Positions 21,031 to 56,982 of a DNA stretch of 64,000 nucleotides are shown here, piece by piece (position 1 is the first letter of the stretch; the number at the start of each line of letters is the position of its first letter). The translations under genes and the position numbers were made by a program. Below the pieces are notes generated by a model. The model had not been told where the DNA came from. It saw only the letters and a list, made by a program, of their open reading frames with translations, and did no database searches. The stretch lies in assembly GCA_963727805.1 (NCBI GenBank), contig CAVSHF010000003.1, positions 1,568,001 to 1,632,000 on the forward strand, read 5' to 3'. This DNA is from an uncultured Nitrospiraceae bacterium. Lineage in GTDB: Bacteria > Nitrospirota > Thermodesulfovibrionia > Thermodesulfovibrionales > Dissulfurispiraceae.

Positions 21031-22151
21031 TGTTCTCCCCCTCTCGCCCCTTTCGGATGCTGGGATACCGGACCGGCCAGGACAGACCAAATGCGTTCAG
21101 CGGCGCGGCCGTCCCATTTTGACGGGGCGGAATAATTTACTGTTTTTTCCGGAATGGATTGGTATGCGCTCAAGATGCCTTCCTTTTTTGTACCAGCAAG
21201 AATATTCGTACCCGAGGTTAACGTAATCGGGCGCTCCGTATTTTGGCGAATTGTAATGCATGGAACACCAAGAGCGGTTGTCTCCTCCTGAAGTCCTCCG
21301 CTGTCAGTCATAACCGCCCGCGCATCCTTCCACAAGAATAAAGACTCCCGGAAACCCAGCGGCGGCAGAAGAATGACATTCTCAGAAAAGTTGATGTTGA
21401 AATAATCGATCATTTTCTTCGTGCGCGGATGGACTGGAAAAATAATCGGCTGTTTGACGGCAATCTCATTCAATGCAGAAGTAATACCCTGGAATATTTC
21501 TCTATTGTCTACGTTGGAAGGCCTGTGTAAAGTCAAAAATATATATGGATTTTTCTCTTTCTTCAATCTGCAAACTGAATATTGCTCAGGGTTTTCGGAC
21601 TTGAGAATCTCAAGTTGATGGAAGAGGTTATCGACCATTACGTTGCCTACAAAATGAATTCGCTCGGCAGGCTTCCCTTCATGGATTAAATTTTCGGTAC
21701 CGCTCTCCTCGGTGACGAAGAAACAGTCCGTTATGCTATCTGTCACCATGCGGTTAATCTCTTCAGGCATACAAAGATCGAAACTTCTCAGCCCCGCTTC
21801 GACGTGGGCCACTTTGATCATGAGTTTCTTAGCCGTAATACTGCAGGCTATCGTGGAATTTACATCTCCAACGACTATGACCCAGTCCGGCCTTTCCCGT
21901 AAACATACCTCCTCGAAGGCAACCATGATCTTTGCGGTCTGAACGGCATGAGAGCCCGAACCGGCTTCAAGGAAAAAATCCGGATGCGCAATTTCCAAAT
22001 CTTCAAAAAAAGATGAAGACATTTCATAATCATAATGCTGCCCGGTATGCACGATCCGGCAGTCCAAACCCTCAATTTGTTTTGCGGCCCTGTGGATCGG
22101 CGCTATTTTCATGAAGTTCGGACGGGCACCCGCAATCAGCAGTACCTTCAT
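21021..22151 (-). CDS. wecB: UDP-N-acetylglucosamine 2-epimerase (non-hydrolysing)
   Basis: GARPNFMK, HTGQHYD, HVEAGLRS, TDSGGLQEE. Confidence 0.95.
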   Translation of the reverse strand: MKVLLIAGARPNFMKIAPIHRAAKQIEGLDCRIVHTGQHYDYEMSSSFFEDLEIAHPDFFLEAGSGSHAVQTAKIMVAFEEVCLRERPDWVIVVGDVNSTIACSITAKKLMIKVAHVEAGLRSFDLCMPEEINRMVTDSITDCFFVTEESGTENLIHEGKPAERIHFVGNVMVDNLFHQLEILKSENPEQYSVCRLKKEKNPYIFLTLHRPSNVDNREIFQGITSALNEIAVKQPIIFPVHPRTKKMIDYFNINFSENVILLPPLGFRESLFLWKDARAVMTDSGGLQEETTALGVPCITIRQNTERPITLTSGTNILAGTKKEGILSAYQSIPEKTVNYSAPSKWDGRAAERIWSVLAGPVSQHPKGARGGEQCK

Positions 22152-35030: not shown

Positions 35031-38000
35031 TTAGAATTGAGATTGCGAGCCCGAATCCTGACTGTCCAGAATAAAATCGATGACCTTTACGTCAAGCCAC
35101 TTCATCAGTGTATCATCTATCATCTGGTCTGTCTGTGCCTTTCTTCCGCCAATAGCACCGCTTGCATCACTCATTGCCTGACTGCTCTGGGTCGCGCTAT
35201 TCGTACCCGACAGAGCACCGATTGAAGTCGATGCCGATGCTGTCTGTGGCACTCCGGCAACGATACCGGAGGCGACAATGTTGCTTGCATTCACTACACC
35301 GACTTCAGCCCCTATAAAAATATTTCCTCCGGCAATCCCAGCCTCTCCGGCATCGATTATGCCTTTAGCATAAAGATGGATATCACCGGGCAAAGCGTAT
35401 CCGTAGGTCACAGCCCTGATTCCGCTTCCAATGGAAGGAGCAGAAAACTTACCGTTACTGGGTGGAGACGCGCTGACCGTAGTCTTCGACCCTCTGCCAG
35501 CATTGATGCTTCCGGTGTCGCTCCATACTGTTATATCGCCGCCGTCAAAAGTCATCAGCCGCGATTCCTGAACGTTGACATCCTTAACGGCAAATATGTT
35601 GATAGCGCCTCCGCTGCCAGTAGCAATACCGTTTGTCGGGCTTATTGTGGCGGTTGCGCTGGGTATGGCTGTCTTGCCCAGGTTCAGGGTGCCGGCGGCA
35701 AGAATATAGATATCGGAAGCGGTGATCGAAGTCATGATCTGGGATGACGTCATATCGATGTTGCCACTGCCCGACAAAGCCCCTTGGAAGAATGGGCCTA
35801 TGATCGCGGCCCTGGCTGTATCAATATAGCTGACATCCTTTGTCTGGCTATAGTTGTCTATGGCGCTACGCAGTGTGCTAAAGAAGCTGCTCACGTCGGT
35901 TATATTCTTATTTAATGAATATCCCGCCGCAAGGATAAGATACCCGTTATCCGCCGGAAGAGCATTATTGGTGCCGTTTCCGTTCATTTGGATCCCGTTT
36001 TGCAATGACCCCAGATCGATTGATCCTCCAGCCTCTACCATGAAGCCCCCAGGTCCGCTCTGAAGAATACCCGATGCTGCCAAAGAATTTGCGCTGTTCT
36101 GATTTGCCAAGGCGTGAGGAATTGCAATATTGCCATTTGCTCTAATCCAAGATACGTCTTGATTACTAATGTTCTGGCCCGTATACACAAAATTGTTGAT
36201 ATCCCCACCGGCGGTTATCTCCGCCTGTTTAGGCAAATAAAGGTCCAGGTACTGAATGTTTCCGCCTGCACTGATCAATATTGGCTGATCATCGTTCTGG
36301 TGCAGGATATACCCTATATTCGCAATTTGGTCCCTAGCCTTATAATAGCCATGGGCTGTTTCGTCACCAGTGAACTGACCAATATAAGTATCGTTGCCTT
36401 CCGCGTTGAAAAGCACGCTGGCGTATGTAGGATTAATGTGAGTTTCAACTTGGTACGATGCCGTAATGAAGGTGCCGTACCAATAACTGGGAGGGAGATC
36501 GGACATCACAATTTTAGTCTGATAAAGTGTTGAACCGGTGATAGTGCCACCGGCAGAAAGGTTCAGGTTCCCCAAAGGTGACGACGCAAGCAATAATGAA
36601 TCAGTTAACAGATATATATTGCCGCCCATTGCGTCTATCTTCACGCTGGCGGGCAGGACACTCTCGACTTGTGTTGCTAGATAGTTTGAACCACCCAGAG
36701 TTTGTCCGCGGTACGCAACATCATAAATAGGCGAATGAGCAGTATACGTCACATCGTTGCCAGCCATCAGACTAATGCTCGAATCCTCAGAGTACGTGCA
36801 ACCTATAACAGCAGATCTCGATATAGTAGTACCCAATACCTTAGGAACGTCCAGTTTGTTGCTGGCAAGGGTCGGATTCACCACAGCCCCCACAAGGGCA
36901 TCCCCTGCCGCAGTTACGGAAAATTTGCTGCCCAGGAGTTCGATCTGTGGGGTCTCAGCGGGAAGAAACTGGTTCAATCGTCCGAAGTTCCCCTTGGCAC
37001 TGAGCTGTCCCTGCCCATTAGCGTTCACAAACCGGCCAGTGATATCCCCGCCAGAATATACTACGAGGTTGCCAACACCGAATGTCCCTGTCTGGGCCAG
37101 GAAATCCCCTCCGGTAAAGATTCGGACATTGCCCCCAGCCATAGTTACAATGCCTGCCGTGCCGTTAACATAGTCGGCAGTGAATTTAGTATCATACCCC
37201 GCTAACAAAATACTGTTTTGGATATTTGTGCCACCGCGAGCTAGACTTTGTTGTTTTACAGGCACGGTGAATATTGTGAAATCGTCCCATTGGTAATTGC
37301 TGGAACTGCCGATGGCTGTCGCCCATTGGCTATGTACTTGGTCATATGTTCCCGCATTGCCTCCCACACTTATATTGATATCGCCACCGCTCTGATACCT
37401 CCAGTAGTATTGTGCGGCACTGCTAAGGTAAGAGACTGACAGGTTAGTGCCTCTGCTTGTTGCCGACGCGAGCAGCGTGCAGCCGTTCGGGTTGCCGCAG
37501 TTTATGGCAGCGATTGGTCTGGGAACATCACTATTAGTTTCTTGTATGACGGGTAAATTCCGCAATATGCCATTCTGCAGATTGTCCATCTTCGGATCAC
37601 TGGCGTCAACGCCGATGAGTACAGATGTGTCCAGCAATTCGCCGGTTGTGCGGATGGCTCCCAGAGTGGGAGCACTACCGATGGCGGCGATGCCAGTCTG
37701 CAATTGCAGGTCACGCCCAACATTGATATTGATAGCGCCTGTAGCTGTCTGGATAGCCCCGGTAACTACAAGGTCTCGTCCCACATCGCCCTGGATTGCA
37801 CCGCTGAAGGAAGCCAAATTATAAACCATGTTGAAAGCAGTGGTCTGTCCATTGGTAATGATAGAATTCGGATCAATCATATACCCAGGAGTATTGCCCA
37901 CGGTTTGTCCGCTGCCTGGGTTGATCGGATCGATAACCGTGTCGCGAGCAGACGAGAAACGGATAGGGGCGTTTTCAGTATAGACTACAGTATTATTGGC

Positions 38001-41000
38001 AATGGTCAGGTCCCCGTTGAGCAAGTTTCCAGCTGCTCTTGTTGTTACGGCCATATAGTTTGCGCTTTTGATGTCGGCTCCTGCCACCAGGTTAAAACCC
38101 CATGTCCTGACTAAAGGGTTAGAGACAATAGGAGCATCATTATTAATATTAGTATATGTATAAGCATCAATGAGATTCTGCTGAATATTGAGGTTCCCGG
38201 CTGCACGGAGGGTCAGCACGCCGGGGGCAGGGGCAGTGGCGCTGCCATACTTGATGTTCGACAAATCAATAATTCTATCTACAGCAATGTCGCCCTGAGT
38301 GTTAATAACTTCGATTTCGGGAAGAATATAGAAAGGATTAGTAGTGGGCACTGCACTCGTGTAATTAGTATAGAATGTTGACGCATTAGAAAGCCACGTG
38401 CTAAAAACAGTCCAGTTAGAGGAGATAGAAAAGTTACCGCTAGAATCTACCAAGTTCAAGTTAGCAACATTATAACTCTCAACGGCCTCAATATTGACCG
38501 CTTTTGCGCCCTTGATGTTCCCGCCATTCAGCTTTATATTCACATTACCGGTATCAGTACGTTGTGCCCTAATATTTACAGTTCCAACAGAAACTCCAGT
38601 TGGTCCGCCACCAACATTAATCGTCCCACCGTTGATATTGACAAAGCCCTGAGAAGAGCTCAGGGTAACGGTACCGCCCAGTGAGCCTTCAGCTGTAGAA
38701 GAGGCGTTGACCAAACCACCTGACTGAATATTTAGATCGTTCATAGCATAAAGTTCAACGTTGCCACCGCTAGCTGAAGATGCATCGATAGTGCCGCTTA
38801 CATTAATGTACCCAGTGAGATTGCCATTTGCATCCTTTGCGGCACCATCTGCCGTCAATTTGACATTGTTCGCAGTCAGCGTCTGATTGGCTACATCAAT
38901 GTTCCCTGTGCGTGTCCTAATGCCAACAGATTCTGTAAACTTGCCGACGCTGAGCATAGTGATGAGATTCGCCATTTCTGGATCCCCAATCACAGACGTA
39001 TCGATCGTAAAAGATCCGCCTTTTCCTCCATTAGGTGCTCCGTTTAATGACCCTGCAAGAGTAACTCCACCAATAGGCGCCGACACGATGATAGACCCGG
39101 AGTCGCCCTGGGCGCCTGCTGCAACGTCGATCACGGACCCCGAGTCCAGAGCAATGGAACCACTGTCGGTCTGCATGGTGACCTGACCTCCAGGAGCATT
39201 GTCGGTTCCTACCGTATCAGACGTATGGCCACTTGTGCCGCCAGCAAGTATCGCAGCCTTCCCGCCAAGGTGAATGTTGCCCATTGCATTGAAATCGACT
39301 GTGCCACCATTCGATTGTATGACCGTTCCGATATTTAAAGACATACCGTAGAATTTCAGCTCACCTCCGGAAGTAGGGCCCGTACCAGCTGCTGCGCCAG
39401 AGGGGGAAGCATTGATTGCTATATTACCGACGGGGTTCAGTACCGAACTGGCAGTATTCTGCCCGCAATGTCCCCCGCTATCGCAAAAGTAATTGTCGCC
39501 GGTATATACCACAAAATTGGTCGGCACGATAAGGTTCGTAGAAATCTTTTCAGTGCCCGTCCAGGTTTGCACGCTGCCCTGTGTGTACGATTGTGCACTT
39601 GCAGTCACAACGCGGGCTGCTGCGATATTGAGATCGGCGTTCCCCGTCGTCAGACTTCCTTTCCCAGTTAAGACCAAGTCTCCATTGCTATTGAGTGCGA
39701 TCGATTTAAAATGGGCAAACAACAAATCACTGCTTATTACGCCTGTAGTTACAGGATTGTACGCAACGCCACCGATTGAGATAGTATCAACAGCGTCGGC
39801 TGTGAATGTACCCGAATTGCTCGTATTGAGCATCTTCGCCGACGCTGTCCCCGAATTTCTTATATTGACAGCGGCAGCAGATAGCGTTACATTCGCAGCG
39901 CTTGCGCTTCCGGAAGGCCCTGCAGCCCAGTCAAAGTCGTCAATTACTGTCGCGTCTAGCGTAATACTACGCAATGTAGTGCCGTTTGTAGCCGAAAGAC
40001 TTGTCCCTTGAGGCCCCCAATTGTCCTGAAAATATATTCCGGTTGGCACCGCAGTGCCGGCCACAGCATTCAAAGAATTGCTTTGGAGGGTAATATCCGT
40101 AAATCCGAGCTGCATAAGCGTATTCCATAAATTACCGTCCAGGTAAAGACCGCCTAATGCAGGATTATTGCCCCCAACATATATAGCGGAACTCGCAATA
40201 GTAATGGCGCCGCTGATGGTACTCAGCTGCCCATTTATTATAAGATTGCCGGTATTGATGCCAAAGGTCTGGTCGGCTTGCAGCTTGGCGCCCGCATCAA
40301 TCTGTGTAATTCCACGCGACGATGTTATCAGGTCTATTTCTCCCGTACCATTCGTCTTGGCAATGAGCTGAGCACCGCCCTGCACTTCTATCTGTTGTTG
40401 CGCAGCTAGTTTTATGACCCCGGCCTGCAGCAACGACCCCGCAAGGATTGTTACATACTTGGTATTCTTCCCGTTATTATTAGTCGGATCGCTGGCATCA
40501 ATATACCCTAAATCTATTTCCTGGAACCCGTTTTCTGAAAGACTCTTGTCAGACACGATCATGTATTGCTTCGAGCCCGGCACAGAGGGGTCATCCGGGA
40601 TACGGCTGTCGTTGAAATGAAAATCCGCAGGCAGTGATGAAGAAAAATTCGCTGAAGGCTCAACATAGACACTGCCATTACTTGAGCTGAGTGTAATTTT
40701 CCCGCCGCTAAAGCCTGCAAGAGGAGCTGCAGATAAGGCGCCATTTATAATAACCGTCTTCGCATTAGTGCCAAATGTGATGCTTCCTCCATCGCCCGAA
40801 ACCAGAGGGTTAGCGCCCGATGTCAAAGAATTGGTAGATGTTGCCGAAGGCGGCACAAGATAATTTCCCTCCTGGGCCAGCACATCAGCAGCTGACCTCA
40901 CACTGAAAACGACAGGCTTAGTGCTGACTATCGACGTATCAGCTATGCTGGTCTGCCCGACGATAAGGGGATACCCGTTCGTTGATACAGCGCCATTTAC

Positions 41001-44000
41001 CGGCAACGTTGAACCCGACTGGACTTCCAGTATATACGCTCCGGGCAAAAAGGCATAACGAGCATTTTGAGCAGAACCAAGAGGGATCATAGAGTAGTAA
41101 CCAGCAGCGAGTCCTCCAACACCTGATGGGAAATAGACCTCCGTTCCCGGCTGCTGAAACCCATTGTCCTTAAAAACAACATAGCGGTTGGTCTTAAGTA
41201 AAGGATCGTTAGTCCCGTTGAGGCCGGCCTGGAACTGAGCAGCATAGAGCGACCCGCCACCCTGCACGTCGACCTTTGCATCAGACATTATAATGGTTTT
41301 TCCTGCATTGAAAGTGACGCCTTTGGAGATCTGTTGGTACGGCGTTGCATTGCCGGAGCAGTTGCCGCCGTCACTGCAAAGAATTGCGTTGATAAGTGTA
41401 GGATCCATTTGGTACTGTGTAGCTTCTCTGGAAATATCACTGGCAGGCTTATATGGATCGACCCAGGCCCACTGACCATTGGAATCAACGACACCGTATT
41501 GGATCGGGATGATGCCGCTTGTCGTTAACAGAGAGCCAGCTCCAAGATAGATCATCTGGTCCGTGCCGGCGTTAAGCGTGATAGTCCCCATAGGGGCAGC
41601 CAGAGTTCCTCCCTCTATATCGATCCCGCCCTTGTCGGAGGTAACAGTCAGAGCTCCGGCGGCCGAATAGATAGGTCCTCCAACCGGCGTTTTGCTGGGC
41701 ATTATCTTGATGTCATTTGCGGCCTCGATAGTAAAGATTGAGTACACGCCTGGACACCATGTGATCGTCCCTGCCGCGGTACGCTCATACACATCGCCGG
41801 GATATATACGGTCGGCGGACAACGTCAGACTGCCGCCGGTGAATAATTGCCCAATCGTAGAAACACCCGAAGGCAATCCGACATAATTTACTGAGTTCAA
41901 GCGAATGTCCCGTGCCGCATCAAGCATGACATTACGAAAACCGCTGAACTGTACGCTGCCGATGACATCAATCCATCCAGTACTGGTGAGAGAAATGTCA
42001 GCTGTTGGGGAAGCTGTTGTCATATTCAATGTTGTCGGCAGATCCGTATTGGCCAAGACTATCCACGGTGCCTGAAGCGCTACGCTGCCCGCTCCCTCGA
42101 TAACATGGGCGTCGAGCGTCAGCTTCCTTCCCACAGTTGCACTCATGGCGTTTAGTGTCAGCGTGCCACGACTGACAAGAGAGATATCATCAAAGCCGGA
42201 TGTTGTATATCGCTGCATATCGATGCCACTTACGTCCATGTCGGTAAGATTAGTGATAGAGAGTTTTCCGCCCTGCAAGCCTGCCATCTTAGGATGAGCA
42301 TTAATTGTAGCTGTCAAATTGGCCGCACCGCTCGAATCGTATGTCAGATAAATGCTGCCAGGTTGTCCGGCATTCGTATATTTATAATAGTAAGAAGCAT
42401 TCGCATTCTGGGAGGACTGTGCAATAACATTCTGGACCGGACTCGATCCTGAGATATCAATGAACGACCCGTCGCTCATTGTCAGTGTCCCAGTCGTAAT
42501 GGAAACCGTTCCACCGTTAACCGGGATATAGTTTACGGGAAACCCCTTCAGCGGGGATGACCGATCAGGCTGGTTGTACCCCCCGGCCAATATACTGGCG
42601 CTGCTTCCAATCCGAAGGCTTCCGTTCACTGTCATAGTGATGTTTCCACTCAGCGATTCCAGAGTACCGTCAATATCTAGGTTATCAGGTGAAGCAAGTG
42701 TAATTGTTGAAGGTATGCTTGACGACGCTGGAGTGGGAGTTGTGCGTATAACAACTCCTGAAGAAACCGTTAGTTTCGCAGCAGGATTTCCCAATTTCCC
42801 GTATGCTCGCAGATGGTTCTGATATTGCGATCCGGTCGCAGGATCAAAATAAGAACCGTCAGGGTCCTTAGAAGCAGTCGCGCTAAAGGAGGACTGACCG
42901 GCCATATATGCGGTACTATCGTCAAGTCCATTAAGTCGAATGAGGTCTGGACGGCCGGCGCTACCAACAGACTGTCCGGTACCGAAGGCCGAGCCGCTCT
43001 GCCCGGTAGACAACGGATTATTCAGTCTCACCATGGATGGGGCAATGGTCGTGTTAGGATCTATAATAACAAATCCACCTGCATTAAGCGTGATCCTGGT
43101 AAAGCCCGCATCATCAAACCGGTTACCGGCAAGAAAGAATGTTACTGCGTTTGGATCCTGCATGTCCTGAGGAAGCGGCAAATACGCGCCAAAATCAGAC
43201 CGCTCAGCAGGCGTTGTTGTTGTCACCTCAATATTATGAGATTGCAGCGTTATAGATCCTCCCAAATACTTTCCTGTTGTATCGGCCAAGGCGTATCCAC
43301 GCAGATCGCCGTCAAGCATTAAAGTGTATCCCTGGATGGCCAAGTTTCCTGCATTGCCGCCAGTTACCTTGTACTTGGGGCTTATAATGTAGCCACCGCT
43401 AACATCAACAACAGCCCCGCTCTCTATAAAGACTCCTGCGCCAGCATCTGTTTCGTCCTTGATAGCTATGTTCCCACCGCTGATCTGTCCGGAACTCACG
43501 ATAGCTTTGTTTCCGTTTCCGGCCGGACTGTTATCGATCTTTTGCCCGGATACATCCAGAACGCTCCTCCCGCCGAGAATGATTCGCTGATCAGGCGGAT
43601 TGCTCGCACCATTCTCCCCAATGATCAAAGAAATAGAACCGGAGGGGACTGTAATGTCCCCTTGGTGTTCAATCCTGCGGGCTTCGGCTGAAAAACTACC
43701 GCCAGGCTGCAGATTAATACTTACGTTCGGCGCTGTCATGATGGTCGATAACGCCAGAAGATTAATCGTCCCGAGTTTAGCTTCGTTCAGAGTCCCAGCG
43801 GAAATTATGGTGGTACCTGAACTCAGTTGTGCAGCGATCGACGTTTCTGAAGCATCCGGAACAATGGAAATCGAAGTTGGCGCATATACTGAAGTCAGAC
43901 TCTGACTACCGATCGTCAATGTTCCAGAATGAGGAACCTCAAGTCCGCGAATCCATGAACACATCAAATCGTCATTGTCTGAAATCGGAGATGTTGAGGG

Positions 44001-46196
44001 ATTATTCGTACTCGCAGTCCAGTCTGTCCAGTTATTCTGATGGAAACCGCGAGTTGTTCCACCGATAAGCTGGCCTTCCAGCACAACATTCTTTGCATTA
44101 AATTCAACACTGCCAGCATCCCCACCCTGCGTATATGAAGGCACATACGTTCCTAGCGCTGATGAGCCCCCGTAATATATTCCCGTCCAGGATTCAGCGA
44201 CATCAAATGATACTCCTTTGTGCGTTACGTTGTACGGTCCAAGCACAGCGGTATATTCGAGATTTGCAGGGGCTGATGCAATATCGTATAGCTTCCCGCC
44301 CGATAACAACATCGTTTTATTAACATACCCCCCCTGATAATTAATAGCTCCAGCGGCAAAATTGAGTTTTGCTCCGGGATAGACAATAATTGAACCATCG
44401 GCCACTGTTGCGTTTATATCACCTAACTGCTTTTTATAATAATAATGGTATGACAAATCTGTTGGGTCCTGGTACATCTGCTTTGTCCATGCCCCACCTA
44501 TGCTCCGCTGCAGGGCTGTCCTGTCGAGGGTCAAAATCACCTGTTCGAGATTGCCGATGGATGAACCGTTCACCAGAGTTGTAGTAATCGGCTGCCCAAG
44601 CAAGATACCACTCTTTTGCGTGTATGCATCCGCAAGTTCGACCGAGGTGAGCTTGTAACTCTCGATAGCCGCAACAGGGAGGCTCGCAACAACACCGCTC
44701 ACATCGATAACGCTGCCTGATTCCATTATGATTTGTTGCTTTGCATTAAGAGTCACCTGACCAGCCGGCGCCGTAATAGTTCCAGAAAGATCGATTTCCA
44801 AGGGGGTAGGTTCGACATCCGCAGAGGACTTCCTCGCCCCAATGTACACCGTTGGTTGAATATCAGAAGAATCGGTTACAGTGCCCCCTGATGCGTCGAC
44901 AGAAAGATCGATTGTGCTGTCACTTCCGGTAAGCACTTTCCCGGTCCCCTGGAGCTCGACTTGGCCTTTATGATTCTGGTATGCGGTTATCGCCCGGATG
45001 ACGCCCCACTGCTCAATGTTATTGCCGTACATGCCGACAAAGCCGCCAGGGGCGTATAAGCCGCTCATGCTACCGTCCGCCAGTTGCGTGCTGGACCAAT
45101 TCACCGCCTTTCCAAACAACGGATCATTATTGGGAGGTGGGGATGTGAAATTATCGTTGACTGAAACGTTAAAGATATTACTCGATGCAGAAGTGTGTTG
45201 CAACGAGTAAACATAATTATCGTTGAAAGCCAAAGTTACACTACTGCCTGCCGCCAAACCGATCTGGCCGAGGGGTGCATTTATGACACCTCCATTCTCG
45301 ACGTATGGGGCGATCAGGAACACATACCCACCGGATGCCTGTATATTCCCGTAATTCGATACCGCGGCATTATAGTAAGCACCGGGGGTAAGACTGCCAG
45401 TTATGCTGTCGGTGCCCTGAGGCTTAAGAACAGAGTAAGTGATACCCTGGTAAGAGTAAGGATTTTGCATGGCAATATCGGACCAATCTGATCCAGCTGC
45501 TCCGGTCCCGTCTTCAACATAGAATGGAAATGAAGTGCCTGATGCAAGTTTATTAAGTCCGTTCATATTGGAAAGAAAATCTATATTCCTGATATTCAGG
45601 GCCGAGGCCACAAGGCTGTAAACGTTTACCTGCGAGCCGGGTCCAAAGAGGATTCCGTTTTGGTTGATGAGGTATATCTGCCCGTCAGCGTTGAGCTTGC
45701 CCCAAATTTGACTGGGATTATTATCCCAAATTCGGTTTAAACAGGCCCAATTCGAATGCGGAGCACCCGAAATATTACCTGGTGCAGCGTTATCCCGCTG
45801 GTAAAAATTAACAGACGAGTTGCTGCCTATATTGAAAGACTGCCAATCAATGATGGCTGTAGGCTGATACTGATAAATGTTGAATTGGCTGCTTCCATTC
45901 GGATCCGGACTCTGATTAAAGGAAGGTGTCGCGCCTATTATAACTCCATCTGCTGTGCTCCCATTAAGTTTCGACTTCAATAATGGAATCTGATTCGGTG
46001 AGACAGCATTAAGATTTCTGGCACTCGCATTGTAAGAGGCATTGGACCCGTAAACACCGGGGATAGTCACCCTGCTAGAAGCAGGTCCGGCCTGGCACAA
46101 AAAAGGGAACAAAAGCACGCCTAAAAAAACCGAAGCCCCGACCACAGAGATACTAAGGCACAGAGAAAGAAAAATAAACTTAACAAATTTATTCAT
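35031..46196 (-). CDS. Filamentous-haemagglutinin-like TpsA exoprotein (~3720 aa) with DUF3739-like C-terminus
   Basis: TPS domain (IIDWQSFNIG, NPSQIWGKLNADGQIYLINQNGILFG), beta-helix repeats, C-terminal GGDITVWSDTGSINAGRGSKT...IIDAGEAGI. Start moved to MNKF (RBS AAGGAAGG) because the track start lies inside the leader terminator. Confidence 0.9.
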   Translation of the reverse strand: MNKFVKFIFLSLCLSISVVGASVFLGVLLFPFLCQAGPASSRVTIPGVYGSNASYNASARNLNAVSPNQIPLLKSKLNGSTADGVIIGATPSFNQSPDPNGSSQFNIYQYQPTAIIDWQSFNIGSNSSVNFYQRDNAAPGNISGAPHSNWACLNRIWDNNPSQIWGKLNADGQIYLINQNGILFGPGSQVNVYSLVASALNIRNIDFLSNMNGLNKLASGTSFPFYVEDGTGAAGSDWSDIAMQNPYSYQGITYSVLKPQGTDSITGSLTPGAYYNAAVSNYGNIQASGGYVFLIAPYVENGGVINAPLGQIGLAAGSSVTLAFNDNYVYSLQHTSASSNIFNVSVNDNFTSPPPNNDPLFGKAVNWSSTQLADGSMSGLYAPGGFVGMYGNNIEQWGVIRAITAYQNHKGQVELQGTGKVLTGSDSTIDLSVDASGGTVTDSSDIQPTVYIGARKSSADVEPTPLEIDLSGTITAPAGQVTLNAKQQIIMESGSVIDVSGVVASLPVAAIESYKLTSVELADAYTQKSGILLGQPITTTLVNGSSIGNLEQVILTLDRTALQRSIGGAWTKQMYQDPTDLSYHYYYKKQLGDINATVADGSIIVYPGAKLNFAAGAINYQGGYVNKTMLLSGGKLYDIASAPANLEYTAVLGPYNVTHKGVSFDVAESWTGIYYGGSSALGTYVPSYTQGGDAGSVEFNAKNVVLEGQLIGGTTRGFHQNNWTDWTASTNNPSTSPISDNDDLMCSWIRGLEVPHSGTLTIGSQSLTSVYAPTSISIVPDASETSIAAQLSSGTTIISAGTLNEAKLGTINLLALSTIMTAPNVSINLQPGGSFSAEARRIEHQGDITVPSGSISLIIGENGASNPPDQRIILGGRSVLDVSGQKIDNSPAGNGNKAIVSSGQISGGNIAIKDETDAGAGVFIESGAVVDVSGGYIISPKYKVTGGNAGNLAIQGYTLMLDGDLRGYALADTTGKYLGGSITLQSHNIEVTTTTPAERSDFGAYLPLPQDMQDPNAVTFFLAGNRFDDAGFTRITLNAGGFVIIDPNTTIAPSMVRLNNPLSTGQSGSAFGTGQSVGSAGRPDLIRLNGLDDSTAYMAGQSSFSATASKDPDGSYFDPATGSQYQNHLRAYGKLGNPAAKLTVSSGVVIRTTPTPASSSIPSTITLASPDNLDIDGTLESLSGNITMTVNGSLRIGSSASILAGGYNQPDRSSPLKGFPVNYIPVNGGTVSITTGTLTMSDGSFIDISGSSPVQNVIAQSSQNANASYYYKYTNAGQPGSIYLTYDSSGAANLTATINAHPKMAGLQGGKLSITNLTDMDVSGIDMQRYTTSGFDDISLVSRGTLTLNAMSATVGRKLTLDAHVIEGAGSVALQAPWIVLANTDLPTTLNMTTASPTADISLTSTGWIDVIGSVQFSGFRNVMLDAARDIRLNSVNYVGLPSGVSTIGQLFTGGSLTLSADRIYPGDVYERTAAGTITWCPGVYSIFTIEAANDIKIMPSKTPVGGPIYSAAGALTVTSDKGGIDIEGGTLAAPMGTITLNAGTDQMIYLGAGSLLTTSGIIPIQYGVVDSNGQWAWVDPYKPASDISREATQYQMDPTLINAILCSDGGNCSGNATPYQQISKGVTFNAGKTIIMSDAKVDVQGGGSLYAAQFQAGLNGTNDPLLKTNRYVVFKDNGFQQPGTEVYFPSGVGGLAAGYYSMIPLGSAQNARYAFLPGAYILEVQSGSTLPVNGAVSTNGYPLIVGQTSIADTSIVSTKPVVFSVRSAADVLAQEGNYLVPPSATSTNSLTSGANPLVSGDGGSITFGTNAKTVIINGALSAAPLAGFSGGKITLSSSNGSVYVEPSANFSSSLPADFHFNDSRIPDDPSVPGSKQYMIVSDKSLSENGFQEIDLGYIDASDPTNNNGKNTKYVTILAGSLLQAGVIKLAAQQQIEVQGGAQLIAKTNGTGEIDLITSSRGITQIDAGAKLQADQTFGINTGNLIINGQLSTISGAITIASSAIYVGGNNPALGGLYLDGNLWNTLMQLGFTDITLQSNSLNAVAGTAVPTGIYFQDNWGPQGTSLSATNGTTLRSITLDATVIDDFDWAAGPSGSASAANVTLSAAAVNIRNSGTASAKMLNTSNSGTFTADAVDTISIGGVAYNPVTTGVISSDLLFAHFKSIALNSNGDLVLTGKGSLTTGNADLNIAAARVVTASAQSYTQGSVQTWTGTEKISTNLIVPTNFVVYTGDNYFCDSGGHCGQNTASSVLNPVGNIAINASPSGAAAGTGPTSGGELKFYGMSLNIGTVIQSNGGTVDFNAMGNIHLGGKAAILAGGTSGHTSDTVGTDNAPGGQVTMQTDSGSIALDSGSVIDVAAGAQGDSGSIIVSAPIGGVTLAGSLNGAPNGGKGGSFTIDTSVIGDPEMANLITMLSVGKFTESVGIRTRTGNIDVANQTLTANNVKLTADGAAKDANGNLTGYINVSGTIDASSASGGNVELYAMNDLNIQSGGLVNASSTAEGSLGGTVTLSSSQGFVNINGGTINVGGGPTGVSVGTVNIRAQRTDTGNVNIKLNGGNIKGAKAVNIEAVESYNVANLNLVDSSGNFSISSNWTVFSTWLSNASTFYTNYTSAVPTTNPFYILPEIEVINTQGDIAVDRIIDLSNIKYGSATAPAPGVLTLRAAGNLNIQQNLIDAYTYTNINNDAPIVSNPLVRTWGFNLVAGADIKSANYMAVTTRAAGNLLNGDLTIANNTVVYTENAPIRFSSARDTVIDPINPGSGQTVGNTPGYMIDPNSIITNGQTTAFNMVYNLASFSGAIQGDVGRDLVVTGAIQTATGAININVGRDLQLQTGIAAIGSAPTLGAIRTTGELLDTSVLIGVDASDPKMDNLQNGILRNLPVIQETNSDVPRPIAAINCGNPNGCTLLASATSRGTNLSVSYLSSAAQYYWRYQSGGDINISVGGNAGTYDQVHSQWATAIGSSSNYQWDDFTIFTVPVKQQSLARGGTNIQNSILLAGYDTKFTADYVNGTAGIVTMAGGNVRIFTGGDFLAQTGTFGVGNLVVYSGGDITGRFVNANGQGQLSAKGNFGRLNQFLPAETPQIELLGSKFSVTAAGDALVGAVVNPTLASNKLDVPKVLGTTISRSAVIGCTYSEDSSISLMAGNDVTYTAHSPIYDVAYRGQTLGGSNYLATQVESVLPASVKIDAMGGNIYLLTDSLLLASSPLGNLNLSAGGTITGSTLYQTKIVMSDLPPSYWYGTFITASYQVETHINPTYASVLFNAEGNDTYIGQFTGDETAHGYYKARDQIANIGYILHQNDDQPILISAGGNIQYLDLYLPKQAEITAGGDINNFVYTGQNISNQDVSWIRANGNIAIPHALANQNSANSLAASGILQSGPGGFMVEAGGSIDLGSLQNGIQMNGNGTNNALPADNGYLILAAGYSLNKNITDVSSFFSTLRSAIDNYSQTKDVSYIDTARAAIIGPFFQGALSGSGNIDMTSSQIMTSITASDIYILAAGTLNLGKTAIPSATATISPTNGIATGSGGAINIFAVKDVNVQESRLMTFDGGDITVWSDTGSINAGRGSKTTVSASPPSNGKFSAPSIGSGIRAVTYGYALPGDIHLYAKGIIDAGEAGIAGGNIFIGAEVGVVNASNIVASGIVAGVPQTASASTSIGALSGTNSATQSSQAMSDASGAIGGRKAQTDQMIDDTLMKWLDVKVIDFILDSQDSGSQSQF

Positions 46197-46269: not shown

Positions 46270-46360
46270 AAAAAAGCCCGAATCAGGACAACAAACTGGC
46301 CTTGTCGATCCGGGCTTTCTGGTCCCATAACACACATATATGTTGGTCAGCAAAGTTCCC
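46270..46360 (-). promoter_or_regulatory. Attenuator-like RNA motif, copy A (antiterminator overlapping an intrinsic terminator)
   Basis: GGGAACTTTGCTGACC...GGGACCAGAAAGCCCGGATC...GATTCGGGCTTTTTT; homologous to 53489-53581 and 53432-53485. Confidence 0.7.
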
Positions 46361-46376
46361 TCTGATAACTTATTTA

Positions 46377-46422
46377 ATTATACCATTTACTCTGTTAAAT
46401 TATTGTTATAAAAATGTTACAA
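46377..46422 (-). promoter_or_regulatory. Pho-box-like promoter of tpsA
   Basis: TTGTAAC-n4-TTATAAC-n4-ATTTAAC-n11-TATAAT (extended TGn -10). Confidence 0.65.
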
Positions 46423-46695: not shown

Positions 46696-48360
46696 TTAAA
46701 GAAGACCCTTCACTTTAAAATATACCCTCTCGTCACCACTCCTTATCCTTCCTGAGGACTTCAGTGCCACAGCCCAGTCCAATTCATATTCCACGTGCTT
46801 CGTCACTGAGCCCCGCATTCCCGCACCAGTGCCCTGGAGTTCGACAGTCCTCGTCTGACTGGGAAGAGGTTGTAGTGTTGTTAGTCTAATGATGTCATAG
46901 AAGATATACGGGGTCATTTGAACTGTTTTTGCGATTTTTGAACCCTCAAACGGGGCCGGAAAGGATACTTCGACCGTACCATGTAGAGCATTATCCCCCA
47001 TAGCCTCGTTTTCCATGTATCCTCGGACACTTTCCATACCCCCTGAGCTATATTGTTCATTGTCGATAAGCGGTCCATCGGCAATCTGTCCGTCCAGTTT
47101 CATGAATAGACCCATGCCCAAGGGCAATTTCTGCATTCGCTGGATACCAGCAGTGACATAAAGGTAATTTGCCCTCGCTAGGTAGCGCTTGGTTTCGAAC
47201 TCCGACTCGCGTGAATTCACCTGCCTGAGGTTCAGGTTCAGCCCAGCGCTAAATTGCGACACGCCGCCCAATTCGTCAGGTAATGAGCTATTGTACGAAG
47301 CAGAAAGGGGTGAATACGTCACCGGCGTCTCAGTTATCTGGCCGGTTACCGGATTTGCAAATCCAAAGGACTGCTTGAAATGCTTGTAATCGAGACCCAA
47401 TGATATATTGTGTGTATATAGCTTGTACTGGGGAAGCGGGACCACATAACGAACCCCGAAAATCTGTCCTTTTCCGACTACCGCAAACCCTTCCCCGAAT
47501 GCAGTGTTGCTATCGGACCAGATGCCGTAAAAAACCAACTGATTGTCAACATTCCACGGTGCCGGAAGAACGTAAGAAAAACTCCATGCCTTCGTTTGAT
47601 TCAGATTCAGTGGCGCGGTCTGGTACTGAATCGAAATTGAATGCTCCTTCTGCCATAAATTATCGTAGCGGATCATAGCGTTCAACCGCAATTCAGTCGT
47701 ATCATGACTGGCTCGGTTATTGATTTCAAGATAACCGTGCAGTGGCAGGTGATCCTCAACCTTCAACTCCGCATCAATGGTCCCGAATTCCTGTCCGGGA
47801 GATATGGCGGGGTCAACCTTGAAATCCTGGTTCCTGTTAAGCCTACCTACCTCTTCATTGACCCTCGGCAGATAGAGTATCTCTCCAGGAGTGAAAGCCG
47901 GCAGGTCATGCATGATCTTTTCCTTTGTGAAATAGCGGTTGCCCGTGACTTTTACATTGCCTATCCGCGTCTCGATTACTTCTAGTTTAACAATGCCCTC
48001 CTTGAGAGTCTGAGCCGGTATATTCACCATAACAGCAGGATACCCTGCCTCGTGATAAAGTTTCTCGATGGCATCACGCGCTTTCTCCACGTCAGATGCC
48101 GTCTTTCCCATACCGATGAAAGGAGCTGCAGCACCCAACACCTTGCCCTTAGGTAAAATAGTGTTTCCGGTGATATCAAAGTCCTTGATCTCGAAATCCG
48201 TTTCCAAGTTAGCCGCCGCGCATACGCTCGCCATGGTGGCAAGAAGTGTCACGATGTAAATCCAACCACACAGGCAAGTAGACACTGAGACACTGAGAAA
48301 GAAGAAAAACTTAGTAGGCTTATTCATTGGAGAAGCCTTATCTTTAATCTTAAATCTCAT
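46696..48360 (-). CDS. ShlB/FhaC/HecB-family TpsB transporter
   Basis: POTRA (YHEAGYPAVMVNIPAQ), GGMESVRGY motif, beta-barrel C-terminus. Confidence 0.92.
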   Translation of the reverse strand: MRFKIKDKASPMNKPTKFFFFLSVSVSTCLCGWIYIVTLLATMASVCAAANLETDFEIKDFDITGNTILPKGKVLGAAAPFIGMGKTASDVEKARDAIEKLYHEAGYPAVMVNIPAQTLKEGIVKLEVIETRIGNVKVTGNRYFTKEKIMHDLPAFTPGEILYLPRVNEEVGRLNRNQDFKVDPAISPGQEFGTIDAELKVEDHLPLHGYLEINNRASHDTTELRLNAMIRYDNLWQKEHSISIQYQTAPLNLNQTKAWSFSYVLPAPWNVDNQLVFYGIWSDSNTAFGEGFAVVGKGQIFGVRYVVPLPQYKLYTHNISLGLDYKHFKQSFGFANPVTGQITETPVTYSPLSASYNSSLPDELGGVSQFSAGLNLNLRQVNSRESEFETKRYLARANYLYVTAGIQRMQKLPLGMGLFMKLDGQIADGPLIDNEQYSSGGMESVRGYMENEAMGDNALHGTVEVSFPAPFEGSKIAKTVQMTPYIFYDIIRLTTLQPLPSQTRTVELQGTGAGMRGSVTKHVEYELDWAVALKSSGRIRSGDERVYFKVKGLL

Positions 48361-49927: not shown

Positions 49928-50185
49928 CTAATGGGAACCAGGATCAAAATGGCCTTTCACACCTGTGCGATTGTCGATATCGATCGCCTTGTTATCGCGT
50001 AAGTTTCTGTCCCCTTTCTTATTTCTGACGTTTTTTTCTCCTGAACAACTTATTATTGCATTCAATTCCTCTGACTGTTCGACCCTTCCAAGGCTTCCCT
50101 GGCTGAAATTGATCTTGATGTAGCCGCTGAATTCTCCCTGCATAAGCTTTCGTATCGTCTCGATAAGCTCCTTCATCCTACTCAT
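49928..50185 (-). CDS. Small protein (85 aa); N-terminal ~40 aa YezD/DUF2292-like; paralogue of 53598..53732
   Basis: GGGGAGG RBS; MSRMKELIETIRKLMQGEFSGYIKINFSQGSLGRVEQSEEL. Confidence 0.7.
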   Translation of the reverse strand: MSRMKELIETIRKLMQGEFSGYIKINFSQGSLGRVEQSEELNAIISCSGEKNVRNKKGDRNLRDNKAIDIDNRTGVKGHFDPGSH

Positions 50186-50406: not shown

Positions 50407-50441
50407 ATCTTAACAATTTGTTTGTTACATCAATATTACGA
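50407..50441 (-). promoter_or_regulatory. Pho-box-like promoter
   Basis: TCGTAAT-ATTG-ATGTAAC-n11-TAAGAT; nearly identical to the site at 34801-34818. Confidence 0.55.
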
Positions 50442-52481: not shown

Positions 52482-53222
52482 CTAAACTGCCATCTTCCTG
52501 CGGATACCGAGCAGACCCAGGAGGCTCGATCCCATCAGCAGGATTGAGGGCGGAACCGGTGTAGCTGTAATAGGATCCAGCTCGGTATGGCCGTCAGCAT
52601 ACGTCCTGAGGTCAACAGCAACCACTGTTTGAGTAAGGGAGCCCCTACCCGCAGGGGCAGAGGGATAATAGTACAGCACTTGGTCAATATAAGAGGTTCC
52701 GATCTTAGCCTCGATGGTTCCCGTTGTGACAGAGCCAGTCATTGTACCTGTACTGCTCCCAGAGAGATCAGCCTGAGTCCAATAAGAATCAGCATTTGAT
52801 TGTGCCAAAGTAGCGTAGGTAAAAGCGCCAGACGTTACGTTGGTGGCAAGAGCCGCATAGGTAGGAGCTATAGCCTGTGTAGCGTTCAGCATACCAACCT
52901 TAATAGTCCCAGGATTAACAACCTGAGTTGCAGCGCCACTCAAATATAACGGATAGCCAAGAGCAGGCTGTGAAAAATAGGCAACAGAATAGCCACTGAG
53001 GCTGCCAAGTCCTAATACGCTTGAAACATTGTTAGTGAAAACCTGATTGCCCGTATCGGTCGTCCTTGAAATAGCTCCAAGGTCAACTGCATACTCATTC
53101 CCTACGCCGCCGGTCTGATAAAGTACCTCGATAAGGTCACCCGTTGCAAACGCAGCCATCGCCTGTCCGCTGAAAGCAAACATAAGCACGGCTACTGCAA
53201 GAAGCATTATGATTTTTTTCAT
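52482..53222 (-). CDS. PEP-CTERM/VPLPA-CTERM-type sorted surface protein
   Basis: Signal peptide; Thr/Gly/Ala-rich body; C-terminal TPVPPSILLMGSSLLGLLGIRRK sorting signal. Confidence 0.9.
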   Translation of the reverse strand: MKKIIMLLAVAVLMFAFSGQAMAAFATGDLIEVLYQTGGVGNEYAVDLGAISRTTDTGNQVFTNNVSSVLGLGSLSGYSVAYFSQPALGYPLYLSGAATQVVNPGTIKVGMLNATQAIAPTYAALATNVTSGAFTYATLAQSNADSYWTQADLSGSSTGTMTGSVTTGTIEAKIGTSYIDQVLYYYPSAPAGRGSLTQTVVAVDLRTYADGHTELDPITATPVPPSILLMGSSLLGLLGIRRKMAV

Positions 53223-53257
53223 TTTGTTCTCCTGAGTTATTGTGGATTATTTCTTAC

Positions 53258-53335
53258 CCTCAGGCAACCCGGCCATCCACTCGCATGGATCCGTAGGCTT
53301 TCCGTCATCCGGTCACCCGGACTTTGGCCTTATAC
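53258..53335 (-). ncRNA. Cyclic di-GMP-I (GEMM-I) riboswitch
   Basis: AAGGCCAAAGTCCGG-GTGA-CCGGATGACGGAAAGCCTACGGATCC...GGATGGCCGGGTTGCC, ~40 nt upstream of the start codon; G at the G20-equivalent position. Confidence 0.88.
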
Positions 53336-53431
53336 TGGAGGCTGGATGCCGGCTAACCCGTCATCCTACCTTAATTTGCTCCAATCAAGCGAAACCTGTC
53401 ACCTCCCCTTTTTTTTGTAATTCCCAAGCTT

Positions 53432-53485
53432 AAAAAGCTCTTATATCCGGGCTTTCTGTTACCTTCACAGGTCAGCCAAGTACCC
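53432..53485 (-). promoter_or_regulatory. Attenuator-like RNA motif, copy C (compact; terminator weak or absent)
   Basis: GGGTACTTGGCTGACCT-GTGA-AGGTAACAGAAAGCCCGGAT. Confidence 0.6.
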
Positions 53486-53488
53486 TAT

Positions 53489-53581
53489 AAAAAAAGCCCG
53501 AATCGATAAGAAAAGACTTCTTTTCTCGATCCGGGCTTTCTGGTGCCGAAGCAAATAAAACTGTCGGTCAGCAAAGGACCC
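53489..53581 (-). promoter_or_regulatory. Attenuator-like RNA motif, copy B, with intrinsic terminator
   Basis: GGGTCCTTTGCTGACCGA...TCGGCACCAGAAAGCCCGGATCGAGAAAAG-AAGT-CTTTTCTTATCGATTCGGGCTTTTTTT. Confidence 0.72.
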
Positions 53582-53597
53582 TAATGATGCTGCTTCG

Positions 53598-53732
53598 TTA
53601 CTTCCTTAGTATCTCTTCAAACTTCTCAACTCTCTGAATGGCCCCGCCTGCAAAATTAATTTTTATGTATCCAGTGAACTTCTTGTCCATTAGGTCCTTG
53701 ATAATATCCATGATTTTTTGTAACCTCTCCAT
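53598..53732 (-). CDS. Small protein (44 aa, below the track cut-off), YezD/DUF2292-like
   Basis: MERLQKIMDIIKDLMDKKFTGYIKINFAGGAIQRVEKFEEILRK; shares F.GYIKINF..G...RVE..EE with 49928..50185. Confidence 0.78.
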   Translation of the reverse strand: MERLQKIMDIIKDLMDKKFTGYIKINFAGGAIQRVEKFEEILRK

Positions 53733-53799: not shown

Positions 53800-53844
53800 A
53801 TCATAACAGTTGAATGTTACAGCTTGATGACAGTAAAATTACAA
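53800..53844 (-). promoter_or_regulatory. Pho-box-like promoter of the leader/PEP-CTERM operon
   Basis: TTGTAAT-TTTA-CTGTCAT-CAAG-CTGTAAC-n10-TATGAT (canonical Pho-box geometry). Confidence 0.72.
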
Positions 53845-56940: not shown

Positions 56941-56982
56941 CTGAACGCCTTTCAACAGTAATATGCTTTTTTGCGGCTAGCC

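Follow-up and report, generated by a model that had tools for sequence, protein, structure and literature searches.

In ribonucleic antiterminator (RAT) systems, a protein bound to a leader hairpin gives read-through, and in the glcT-ptsG arrangement the gene for the regulator lies directly 5' of the hairpin. The first gene of the hut operon, hutP, codes for a small RNA-binding antiterminator that acts on the terminator region before the structural genes, reading UAG repeats and not a bulged hairpin. ANTAR targets are built from two adjacent short hexaloop hairpins, the second of which overlaps a terminator. Here we analyse a stretch of 64,000 nucleotides (the window) from an uncultured Nitrospiraceae bacterium (GCA_963727805.1, contig CAVSHF010000003.1, positions 1,568,001 to 1,632,000), the minus strand of which carries three copies (A, B and C) of an imperfect hairpin of 42-54 nt. 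As in RAT architecture, the 3' part of this hairpin overlaps the 5' arm of a terminator (89 of 118 distinct copies), and the element is very probably a new antiterminator/terminator leader RNA. At copies A and B it is half of a larger leader, which comprises a small open reading frame (ORF), the two motif copies and a cyclic di-GMP (c-di-GMP-I) riboswitch.

The hairpin motif, its terminators and its homologues

The original prediction, made from the letters of the window, had described three copies of an RNA motif, and all three were recovered at the positions it gave, read on the minus strand (Table 1). It had missed the c-di-GMP-I aptamer, about 100 nt further downstream, and the small ORF upstream of copy A. 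Aligned, the three copies have AGGG-ya-CUUU-G-CUG-A-CC and GG-nAC-CAG-AAAG-CCC-GGAU in common on either side of a variable part, yielding the hairpin consensus GGGyaCUUUGCUGACC-variable-GGnACCAGAAAGCCC. The window contains the 14-mer CAGAAAGCCCGGAT three times without a mismatch; when up to two mismatches are allowed, the expected number is 0.58, and 1 of 100 shuffles reached three. Across the 3.89 Mb source genome (G000), the pattern GCTGACC-N4-40-CAGAAAGCCC gave four matches on a single strand, against none for the backwards control. Covariance search identified seven motif copies in this genome. The four outside the window precede a protein with an RHH domain (copy D), two PEP-CTERM proteins and a repeat-rich secreted protein. 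Copy D lies 13 kb before the window (G000:C3:1554435-1554963, minus strand; L001/L005); its terminator sequence is identical to that of copy A, and its inner hairpin differs but is compensated.

Folded alone, each copy forms the helix that had been proposed, GGG..CUUU.CUG with CAG-AAAG-CCC, around a variable inner hairpin. The claim of mutually exclusive folds was likewise borne out, the terminator capturing the AAAGCCC strand in copies A, C and D once downstream sequence is included. With 50 more bases, these copies fold at -35 to -41.5 kcal/mol (z -3.3 to -4.9) into a U-tract terminator that has GAAAGCCC as its 5' arm, and the full leader of copy A does so at -36.4 kcal/mol (z -4.7). Copies A, C and D thereby present the G+C-rich hairpin and U tract of intrinsic terminators. 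Among the window copies, the terminators belong to A (53489-53581) and C (46270-46360) and not, as had been stated, to A and B; copy B (53432-53485) has no U tract.

Copy B is only 42 nt long because its inner hairpin has shrunk to a 6-nt loop. It has G at position 11, resulting in a GxA mismatch, and UAAC on the 3' side, and with downstream sequence it folds no better than shuffles (z 0.18). The same subtype makes up the second tandem copy in G003, G032, G095, G106 and loci titled Smithella (lineage names are those in the record titles of loci confirmed by the model). Short loop, G or C mismatch at position 11 and 3' UAAC are conserved in these second copies, and their terminator is lost in Nitrospirota-titled loci and kept in Smithella-titled ones. 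Reading by eye, relatives present a longer GAGCYU...AGGCUC hairpin at the site of the weak hairpin that follows copy B.

Scanning the 118 distinct copies with a script detected a hairpin starting inside the P1 3' strand and followed by a U-rich tail in 89. The 28 copies without a script terminator include at least 10 that are the short second copy of a tandem pair, and inspection by eye indicated that a few terminators had been missed by the script. The median energy was -11.4 kcal/mol for the hairpin alone and -31.6 kcal/mol for the full leader, and in the minimum-energy folds of the 98 leaders with a U4 run the shared strand lay in the terminator in 68, in P1 in 18 and in neither in 12. Given that the folds are mutually exclusive and the terminator is far more stable, termination would be the thermodynamic default, and the element would hence operate as an ON switch that needs something to hold the hairpin. 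The motif presents the architecture of riboswitch-type leaders, with a conserved structured sensor showing covariation and an overlapping expression platform.

The RNA had been called unrecognised, and cmscan against all 4227 families of Rfam 15 assigned no family to it. At gathering thresholds the sole match in the window was the c-di-GMP-I aptamer; scanning both motif sites to E<=10 returned best overlaps at E 2-7, far under gathering. In 40 related loci scanned at the gathering threshold and 20 scanned at E<=0.05, only matches to the c-di-GMP-I clan were obtained, none of them on the motif. The motif itself does not conform to the c-di-GMP-I model RF01051, with which its separate neighbour at 53260-53338 agrees. 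Full-text searches of the literature turned up no description of the motif; an unnamed listing is possible in the supplement of a 2024 survey that includes a Geobacter genome (PMC11109978).

Covariance models were built from the four copies of the source genome (first model) and from 44 sequences (second model), leaving L021 and a 16-nt match in L007 out of the seed as doubtful. Searches covered samples of genomes, so that a motif not found is not to be equated with a motif absent. With the first model the motif was identified in 10 of 151 relatives, the source genome counted. The second model located it in 11 of the same 151 relatives and in 7 of 151 genomes of an even sample of the phylum, six of these in one other family (6 of 27). 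Among relatives of genomes titled Desulfatiglandaceae, Smithella and Geobacteraceae, the same model found it in 9 of 121, 10 of 121 and 34 of 121, respectively, and copy number ranged from 1 to 12 per genome. A collection-wide pattern scan was too loose (at least 118 stretches; 80 loci fetched, giving 19 model matches at E<=0.1, about a dozen judged real by their flanks) and was used only for finding other lineages.

The homologues in other genomes retain the helix through compensatory changes. The covariation set comprised 124 matches and 118 distinct sequences, in which 96.8% of the pair cells are canonical and 8 of the 12 modelled pairs present changes on both sides. The covariation score of 0.141, which we take as a supportive figure obtained on a model-fitted alignment, compares with 0.084 +/- 0.003 in shuffles (0 of 500 reach 0.141) and with 0.035-0.071 when partners are slid by 1-3 columns. 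Pair 14-67 (UA 105, CG 8, AU 1, UG 2) and two P2 base pairs (CG/UA/AU/UG) are never unpaired, and in the P2 extension double changes were observed in five of five pairs (44 sequences). Among 80 sequences, the unpaired bases G12 (79/80), A16 (66/80) and A64 (73/80) are near-invariant. The terminal loop ranges from 5 nt to a 25-nt inserted hairpin and, because it is so freely swapped for a hairpin, recognition would have to lie in the bulged lower stem. These comparative data agree with the new attenuator class that had been put forward, for which we infer both the acting effector and the direction of its action.

The genes behind the motif encode secreted or surface proteins, as the original prediction had it. 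An ORF on the same strand begins within 700 nt of 105 of the 118 copies under the start-codon rule of the script. The downstream ORFs comprise 56 with a PEP-CTERM-like tail (regular expression), 23 cut by the end of the locus and 26 others, and 13 copies had none. Of the 58 distinct proteins encoded downstream, 44 were scanned against Pfam (short ORFs were left out), and the majority of those scanned are exported. The strongest family per protein was PEP-CTERM, mostly below cutoff (11), the TPS domain of two-partner secretion (6), cytochrome c7 (2), alkaline phosphatase (2) and, once each, Laminin_G_3/DUF2341, RCC1, a class-V aminotransferase with a twin-arginine (TAT) signal, ParA-like, V4R, PAS and a weak helix-turn-helix; 16 proteins had no family. 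The secreted alkaline phosphatases occur in Desulfobacterota-type loci (L182 and L183, Pfam E ~1e-59; L239, by eye; genomes G258, G260 and G552), and a link to phosphate was considered on account of these enzymes and of a PstS-like protein in the window operon.

At gathering score, 12 of 40 loci have an aptamer of the c-di-GMP-I clan 3' of the motif and on its strand; among the further 20 loci such an aptamer was found up to 300 nt downstream in six, 630 nt downstream in one and upstream in one. For the aptamers of L229, L238, L239, L008, L011, L043, L155 and L174, the c-di-GMP-I-GGC family (RF03167) outscores RF01051.

Promoter-like elements can be read by eye 10-20 nt 5' of motif copies. A regulon-wide pattern, (CATAAT..)TGTAAC(A) followed after 8-11 nt by a TAnnAT-like and often extended (TGn) -10 element, is seen on the minus strand of the window at 53800-53821, 50407-50429 and 46377-46400, and in L019, L014, L032, L215 and L216; with a loose regular expression, GTAAC-like words were found 5' of 40 of 118 copies. 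The spacing from TGTAAC to the -10 element is too short for a normal -35 element, suggesting that this set of genes has a transcription factor or sigma factor of its own.

Candidate effectors and competing explanations

We tentatively favour, at somewhat short of even chances, a cis-acting attenuation switch in which termination is the default and which is turned ON by an adjacent 44-aa protein. RNA polymerase leaving the promoter would transcribe an imperfect hairpin with a P1 stem composed of GGG/CCC, CUUU/AAAG and CUG/CAG. A bulge (YA), a bulged G that is invariant and an internal loop of 1x3 interrupt this stem, and a P2 stem of variable length caps it. The P1 3' strand, GAAAGCCC, also provides the 5' arm of the strong intrinsic terminator downstream. 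A trans-acting factor locking the hairpin would prevent the terminator from forming and let transcription enter the gene, and the most likely factor would be the conserved 44-aa protein encoded directly 5' of one motif copy. In many leaders a c-di-GMP-I riboswitch follows the switch in series, so that expression would need both inputs. We infer all three of the steps on which this reading turns, namely that a factor binds, that the factor is the small protein and that binding turns the genes on.

The small protein is the leading candidate for the effector, with a small-molecule ligand as its main rival. It belongs to a family with at least 1240 cluster representatives at E<=1e-3 and a core of F-T-G-Y-I-K-I/V-N-F-x-x-G-x-I-G-R-I/V-E-K-F-E-E-I-L; among 120 representatives listed, the named ones are almost all hypothetical proteins and none has a Pfam domain. 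An AlphaFold model (predicted local distance difference test, pLDDT, 88) consists of a helix and a beta-hairpin, and the conserved Y, K, N, R and F probably occupy one face of the protein, because they alternate along the strands. In most genomes, in loci titled Nitrospirota, Smithella and Geobacteraceae, the stop codon of the small protein lies 6-200 nt 5' of a motif copy, and in G153 (L170) one motif copy also precedes a paralogue.

Protein and motif co-occur in each of the four samples compared. Counting protein matches at E<=1e-13 among the relatives of the source genome, 7 of 8 protein-positive genomes carry the motif and 7 of 11 motif-positive genomes carry the protein; this count omits weak protein matches in G008, G010 and G031 (E 8.6e-5 to 1e-3), the inclusion of which turns the first figure into 7 of 11. 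The corresponding pairs of values are 5 of 5 and 5 of 9 in the Desulfatiglandaceae-titled sample, 6 of 6 and 6 of 10 in the Smithella-titled sample and 32 of 35 and 32 of 34 in the Geobacteraceae-titled sample, for a total of 50 of 54 protein-positive and 50 of 64 motif-positive genomes.

Several observations weigh against this reading. Of 64 motif-positive genomes, 14 showed no small protein, and one of these is the near-complete G033 (98% complete, 5 contigs), which has two motif matches. Since the protein gene adjoins a motif copy, co-occurrence could largely reflect one inherited locus. Searches of the small protein against Pfam and NCBIfam returned no RNA-binding family or anything else relevant, its best Foldseek match in the PDB had E 1.9, the ESM Atlas returned nothing but unnamed clusters (0.76), and the best-conserved part of the protein, EKFEE, is acidic. 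Copy B and its kin have no terminator, so that the mechanism cannot apply to every copy. As regards the RNA, mismatches occur at pair 8-72 in 15 of 118 sequences and at pair 11-69 in 19 of 118, and the covariation counts come from related sequences fitted to the model, which overstates their independence.

Weak matches to PSMalpha in 4 of 12 members of the small-protein family were taken as noise. Other protein candidates were also considered. The 130-aa RHH-domain protein behind copy D was dismissed as a general factor, given that it was found only in G000 and G003 (2 of 151 genomes). Among known antiterminator families, CAT_RBD (PF03123) had no match in G000, which is 100% complete, with the control positive in 4 of 14 genomes; HutP (PF09021) had none in G000, with the control positive in Bacillus subtilis; and ANTAR (PF03861) had none in G000, but here the control was also silent in all 14 genomes.

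The genomes with motif and without small protein are accommodated more readily by a true riboswitch, in which the bulged G and the 1x3 loop form a pocket for a ligand or ion that locks P1 against the terminator, the small ORF being merely the first gene of an ancestral locus. The near-invariance of unpaired G12 and A64 is in line with such a pocket. The riboswitch also agrees with the variety of the many genes controlled, which include adhesins, exosortase cargo, cytochromes and phosphatases; second-messenger riboswitches such as GEMM likewise control varied genes, and the motif often stands in series with a riboswitch of this kind (12 of 40 loci, 6 of the further 20 and the window), with which it would constitute a two-ligand AND gate. 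Small hairpin aptamers overlapping terminators do exist, as the HMP-PP riboswitch illustrates (PMC6478431). Yet the distribution of the motif is patchy and tracks one gene system instead of a core metabolite (11/151, 9/121, 10/121 and 34/121 genomes), the element is a single simple hairpin with conserved bases that are chiefly helical, the near-constant upstream small gene is left without a role, and the gene set points to no candidate ligand. We consider a ligand-binding riboswitch possible but unlikely, at perhaps one chance in a handful or a little better.

The bolder form of this idea, in which the hairpin is the aptamer of an unrecognised signalling molecule and forms a two-messenger AND gate with GEMM-I, is rather unlikely as well. 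Were it true, the gate would set the timing of export of exosortase cargo, adhesins and extracellular cytochromes in Geobacter-, Smithella- and Nitrospirota-type bacteria. Equally open is the alternative that the 44-aa protein is the first member of a new antiterminator family; for an antiterminator, 44 aa would be, to our knowledge, an unusually small size.

The predominance of the terminator fold (68 of 98 leaders) can also be read as a sign that there is no dedicated effector, the element being a fixed or globally tuned attenuator (dependent on the speed of the polymerase, on NusA/NusG or on temperature) or a stem-loop with a stabilising role at the 5' end. Such an element would keep the basal expression of costly secreted proteins low, with regulation left to the promoter and the c-di-GMP riboswitch. 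The promoter-like TGTAAC..N..TAnnAT architecture common to these genes, read by eye, would agree with control at initiation, and the terminator itself could explain much of the conservation of AAAGCCC/GGGCUUU. Outside the terminator, however, lie the bulged G and the core CUG-A-CC / GG-nAC-CAG, and both are nonetheless conserved across two phyla, as judged from record titles. Furthermore, a 5' strand that precisely mimics the 3' arm of the terminator is the signature of a switch, and the hairpin is kept in copies without a terminator. An attenuator lacking an effector hence seems improbable.

Each of the seven copies in the source genome, and of up to 12 elsewhere, has a promoter-like element and a strong terminator, and it is the hairpin that is conserved and not the sequence 3' of it. 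On these grounds the short terminated transcripts (~90-100 nt) might be trans-acting small RNAs, for instance sponges for an RNA-binding protein, with read-through as an incidental outcome. The consistent placement of copies 50-500 nt 5' of a secreted-protein gene, on the same strand, argues against this view and renders it quite improbable; none was noticed alone between convergent genes, although no systematic search for such cases was made. Finally, a dispersed repeat (a miniature mobile element or one of repetitive extragenic palindrome, or REP, type) carrying a terminator and no regulatory role would fit the several copies per genome and the identical terminators of A and D, but is scarcely credible in view of the low copy number, the fixed orientation to the downstream gene, the compensatory changes, the conservation in loci titled across two phyla and the fact that the aligned copies show neither repeats at their flanks nor duplicated target sites.

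Leader elements and genes around the window copies

The leader that contains copies A and B can be followed from a promoter-like element to the start codon of a PEP-CTERM-type gene at 53220-53222 (Table 1). Between copy B and the aptamer lies a Shine-Dalgarno-like element without a credible ORF behind it. Its conserved form in relatives is AAGGAGGUGAUAGGGA (L007, L008, L009, L010, L043 and L080), located 60-110 nt 5' of the c-di-GMP-I aptamer. A conserved GCCUYCAG lying immediately 5' of the aptamer (GCCUCCAG, 53335-53342) is a possible pairing partner for this element, which may alternatively serve as a ribosome-binding stabiliser. Given that the 3' flank of the c-di-GMP-I riboswitch can hide the Shine-Dalgarno sequence of the PEP-CTERM gene, this riboswitch probably acts on translation, and the upstream motif would act on transcription.

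Table 1. Coordinates of the features identified in the window (position 1 is its first letter)
Feature	Position	Strand	Details
Exosortase XrtD with fused EpsI domain	19435..21090	(-)	TIGR04152, 599.6 bits, cutoff 400
TpsA-type giant exoprotein, 3721 aa, behind copy C	35031..46196	(-)	TPS domain E 4.9e-20; DUF3739 E 1.1e-21
Copy C intrinsic terminator	46270..46319	(-)	overlaps P1 3' strand; -35.0 kcal/mol, z -3.3
Motif copy C, long type, 54 nt	46308..46361	(-)	second model 56.2 bits
Extended -10 element TGGTATAAT	46377..46385	(-)	15 nt 5' of copy C; read by eye
TpsB (ShlB/FhaC-type) transporter, 5' of copy C	46696..48360	(-)	ShlB E 1.5e-16; POTRA_2 E 3.1e-14
Second small-protein paralogue (..EFSGYIKINFSQGSLGRVEQSEEL..)	49928..50185	(-)	G000:C3:1618063-1618194, E 1.1e-14
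246-aa secreted protein	52482..53222	(-)	signal peptide; PEP-CTERM-type C-terminus (..TPVPPSILLMGSSLLGLLGIRRK..)
c-di-GMP-I expression platform	53220..53265	(-)	CCUGAG...CUCAGG hairpin overlaps Shine-Dalgarno sequence CUCAGGAG; read by eye
c-di-GMP-I (GEMM-I) aptamer	53260..53338	(-)	RF01051, 52.1 bits vs gathering 35, E 2.6e-7, full-length
Shine-Dalgarno-like AAGGGGAGGUGACAGG (AAGGGGAGGUGA)	53395..53412	(-)	read by eye
Weak hairpin AGCUU-UUU-AAGCU 3' of copy B	53423..53444	(-)	no U tract; folding
Motif copy B, short type, 42 nt	53445..53486	(-)	second model 60.1 bits, best of all copies
Copy A intrinsic terminator	53489..53540	(-)	5' arm (GAAAGCCCGGAUCGAG...) = P1 3' strand; U7 tract at end
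Motif copy A, long type, 54 nt	53582->53529	(-)	second model 56.3 bits; P1 GGG/CCC, CUUU/AAAG, CUG/CAG; bulges YA and G; internal loop A / nAC; P2 CC/GG with extended hairpin
Small ORF, 44 aa (..FTGYIKINFAGGAIQRVEKFEEILRK)	53598..53732	(-)	stop codon 15 nt before copy A
Promoter-like TGTAACA-N8-TTATGAT, 5' of small ORF	53800..53821	(-)	read by eye
STT3/PglB-like oligosaccharyltransferase	54712-56955	(-)	just upstream of leader
EAL-CBS-GGDEF protein	57919-59796	(-)	just upstream of leader
IS5-family transposase ORF	59778-60548	(+)	abuts 5' end of EAL-GGDEF gene

The C-terminus of the 246-aa protein matched PF07589 at residues 220-243 below cutoff (E 0.042) and XDP1 at E 0.041. No NCBIfam match to VPLPA-CTERM was obtained for this protein at E<=1, and it is accordingly labelled PEP-CTERM-type only. 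The predicted sorting enzyme for such cargo is XrtD, the gene of which sits within an exopolysaccharide cluster. XrtD was examined as the sole correlate of the motif and rejected: it scored above 360 bits in 7 of 151 genomes, 6 of them with the motif, and 5 motif-positive genomes had no match of that score, indicating that the motif is linked to XrtD systems and not confined to them.

The genes around the motif copies all lie on the minus strand, in a row that also holds a PstS-like binding protein. Both G000 and the Smithella-titled G151 retain the order small protein, leader, PEP-CTERM protein, PstS-like protein and paralogue, and the small-protein paralogues occur two per genome, ~3.5 kb apart. 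Upstream of copy D, a TGnTAnAAT sequence comparable to the extended -10 element of copy C can be read by eye.

Comparison with known systems

Biofilms are shaped by PEP-CTERM/exosortase cargo, by adhesins of two-partner secretion systems and by extracellular cytochromes; in bacteria of the Geobacter type, these proteins also shape the contact made with minerals and electrodes. Passages of PMC1569441 acknowledge the regulation of such genes outside the Proteobacteria as a gap, for which the motif provides a testable handle. Either effector, RNA-binding mini-protein or ligand, would add a regulatory class, and the motif would add a second input to the control of surface proteins by c-di-GMP. If cultured and tractable relatives of Geobacter carry the motif, bench tests are feasible.

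A dedicated cis element common to many single-gene PEP-CTERM operons of one genome has a precedent in the PEP-CTERM box. As described in parts of Haft et al. 2006 (PMC1569441), the PrsR/sigma-54 box is a DNA enhancer with a -24/-12 promoter, reported only from Proteobacteria, and the other PEP-CTERM upstream regions are left unexplained in those parts. The box, however, is a DNA site, whereas the motif is an RNA hairpin with a terminator. GEMM-I controls the same kinds of genes (surface proteins and cytochromes) and stands in series with the motif in many leaders, but cmscan puts it 100-300 nt further downstream and finds nothing on the motif itself. Tandem riboswitch gates with two inputs have been reviewed, and the passages of that review that were consulted name no such partner (PMC9481103).

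Among ON riboswitches with small aptamers, those for HMP-PP (thiS) and for Na+ and Li+ resemble the motif in that a hairpin with an internal loop competes with a terminator stem (PMC6478431, PMC9337991 and PMC9646797). In contrast with these, the motif is missed by their Rfam families, its gene set suggests no metabolite or ion, and a small protein gene accompanies it. ANTAR targets differ in structure, the motif being a single long bulged hairpin with a variable terminal loop. The hut operon of Bacillus subtilis offers a likeness in gene order, with a small regulator gene followed by a terminator and then by structural genes (hutP-terminator-hutH), and glcT-RAT-ptsG offers another, but no protein of the HutP family was matched in the source genome.

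A close resemblance is that to the RAT/CAT-PRD systems (BglG, SacY, LicT and GlcT), in which, as in the motif, an imperfect hairpin with internal loops overlaps the 5' arm of a terminator with its 3' part. This is a comparison of architecture: the source genome has no CAT_RBD match, and the candidate here is a protein of 44 aa from no known family. The genes concerned also differ, being devoted to sugar uptake in RAT systems and to secreted and surface proteins here, in hosts titled Nitrospirota and Desulfobacterota-type. The mechanism is familiar in kind; the sequence of the motif, its regulon, its partner protein and its tandem wiring match nothing catalogued.

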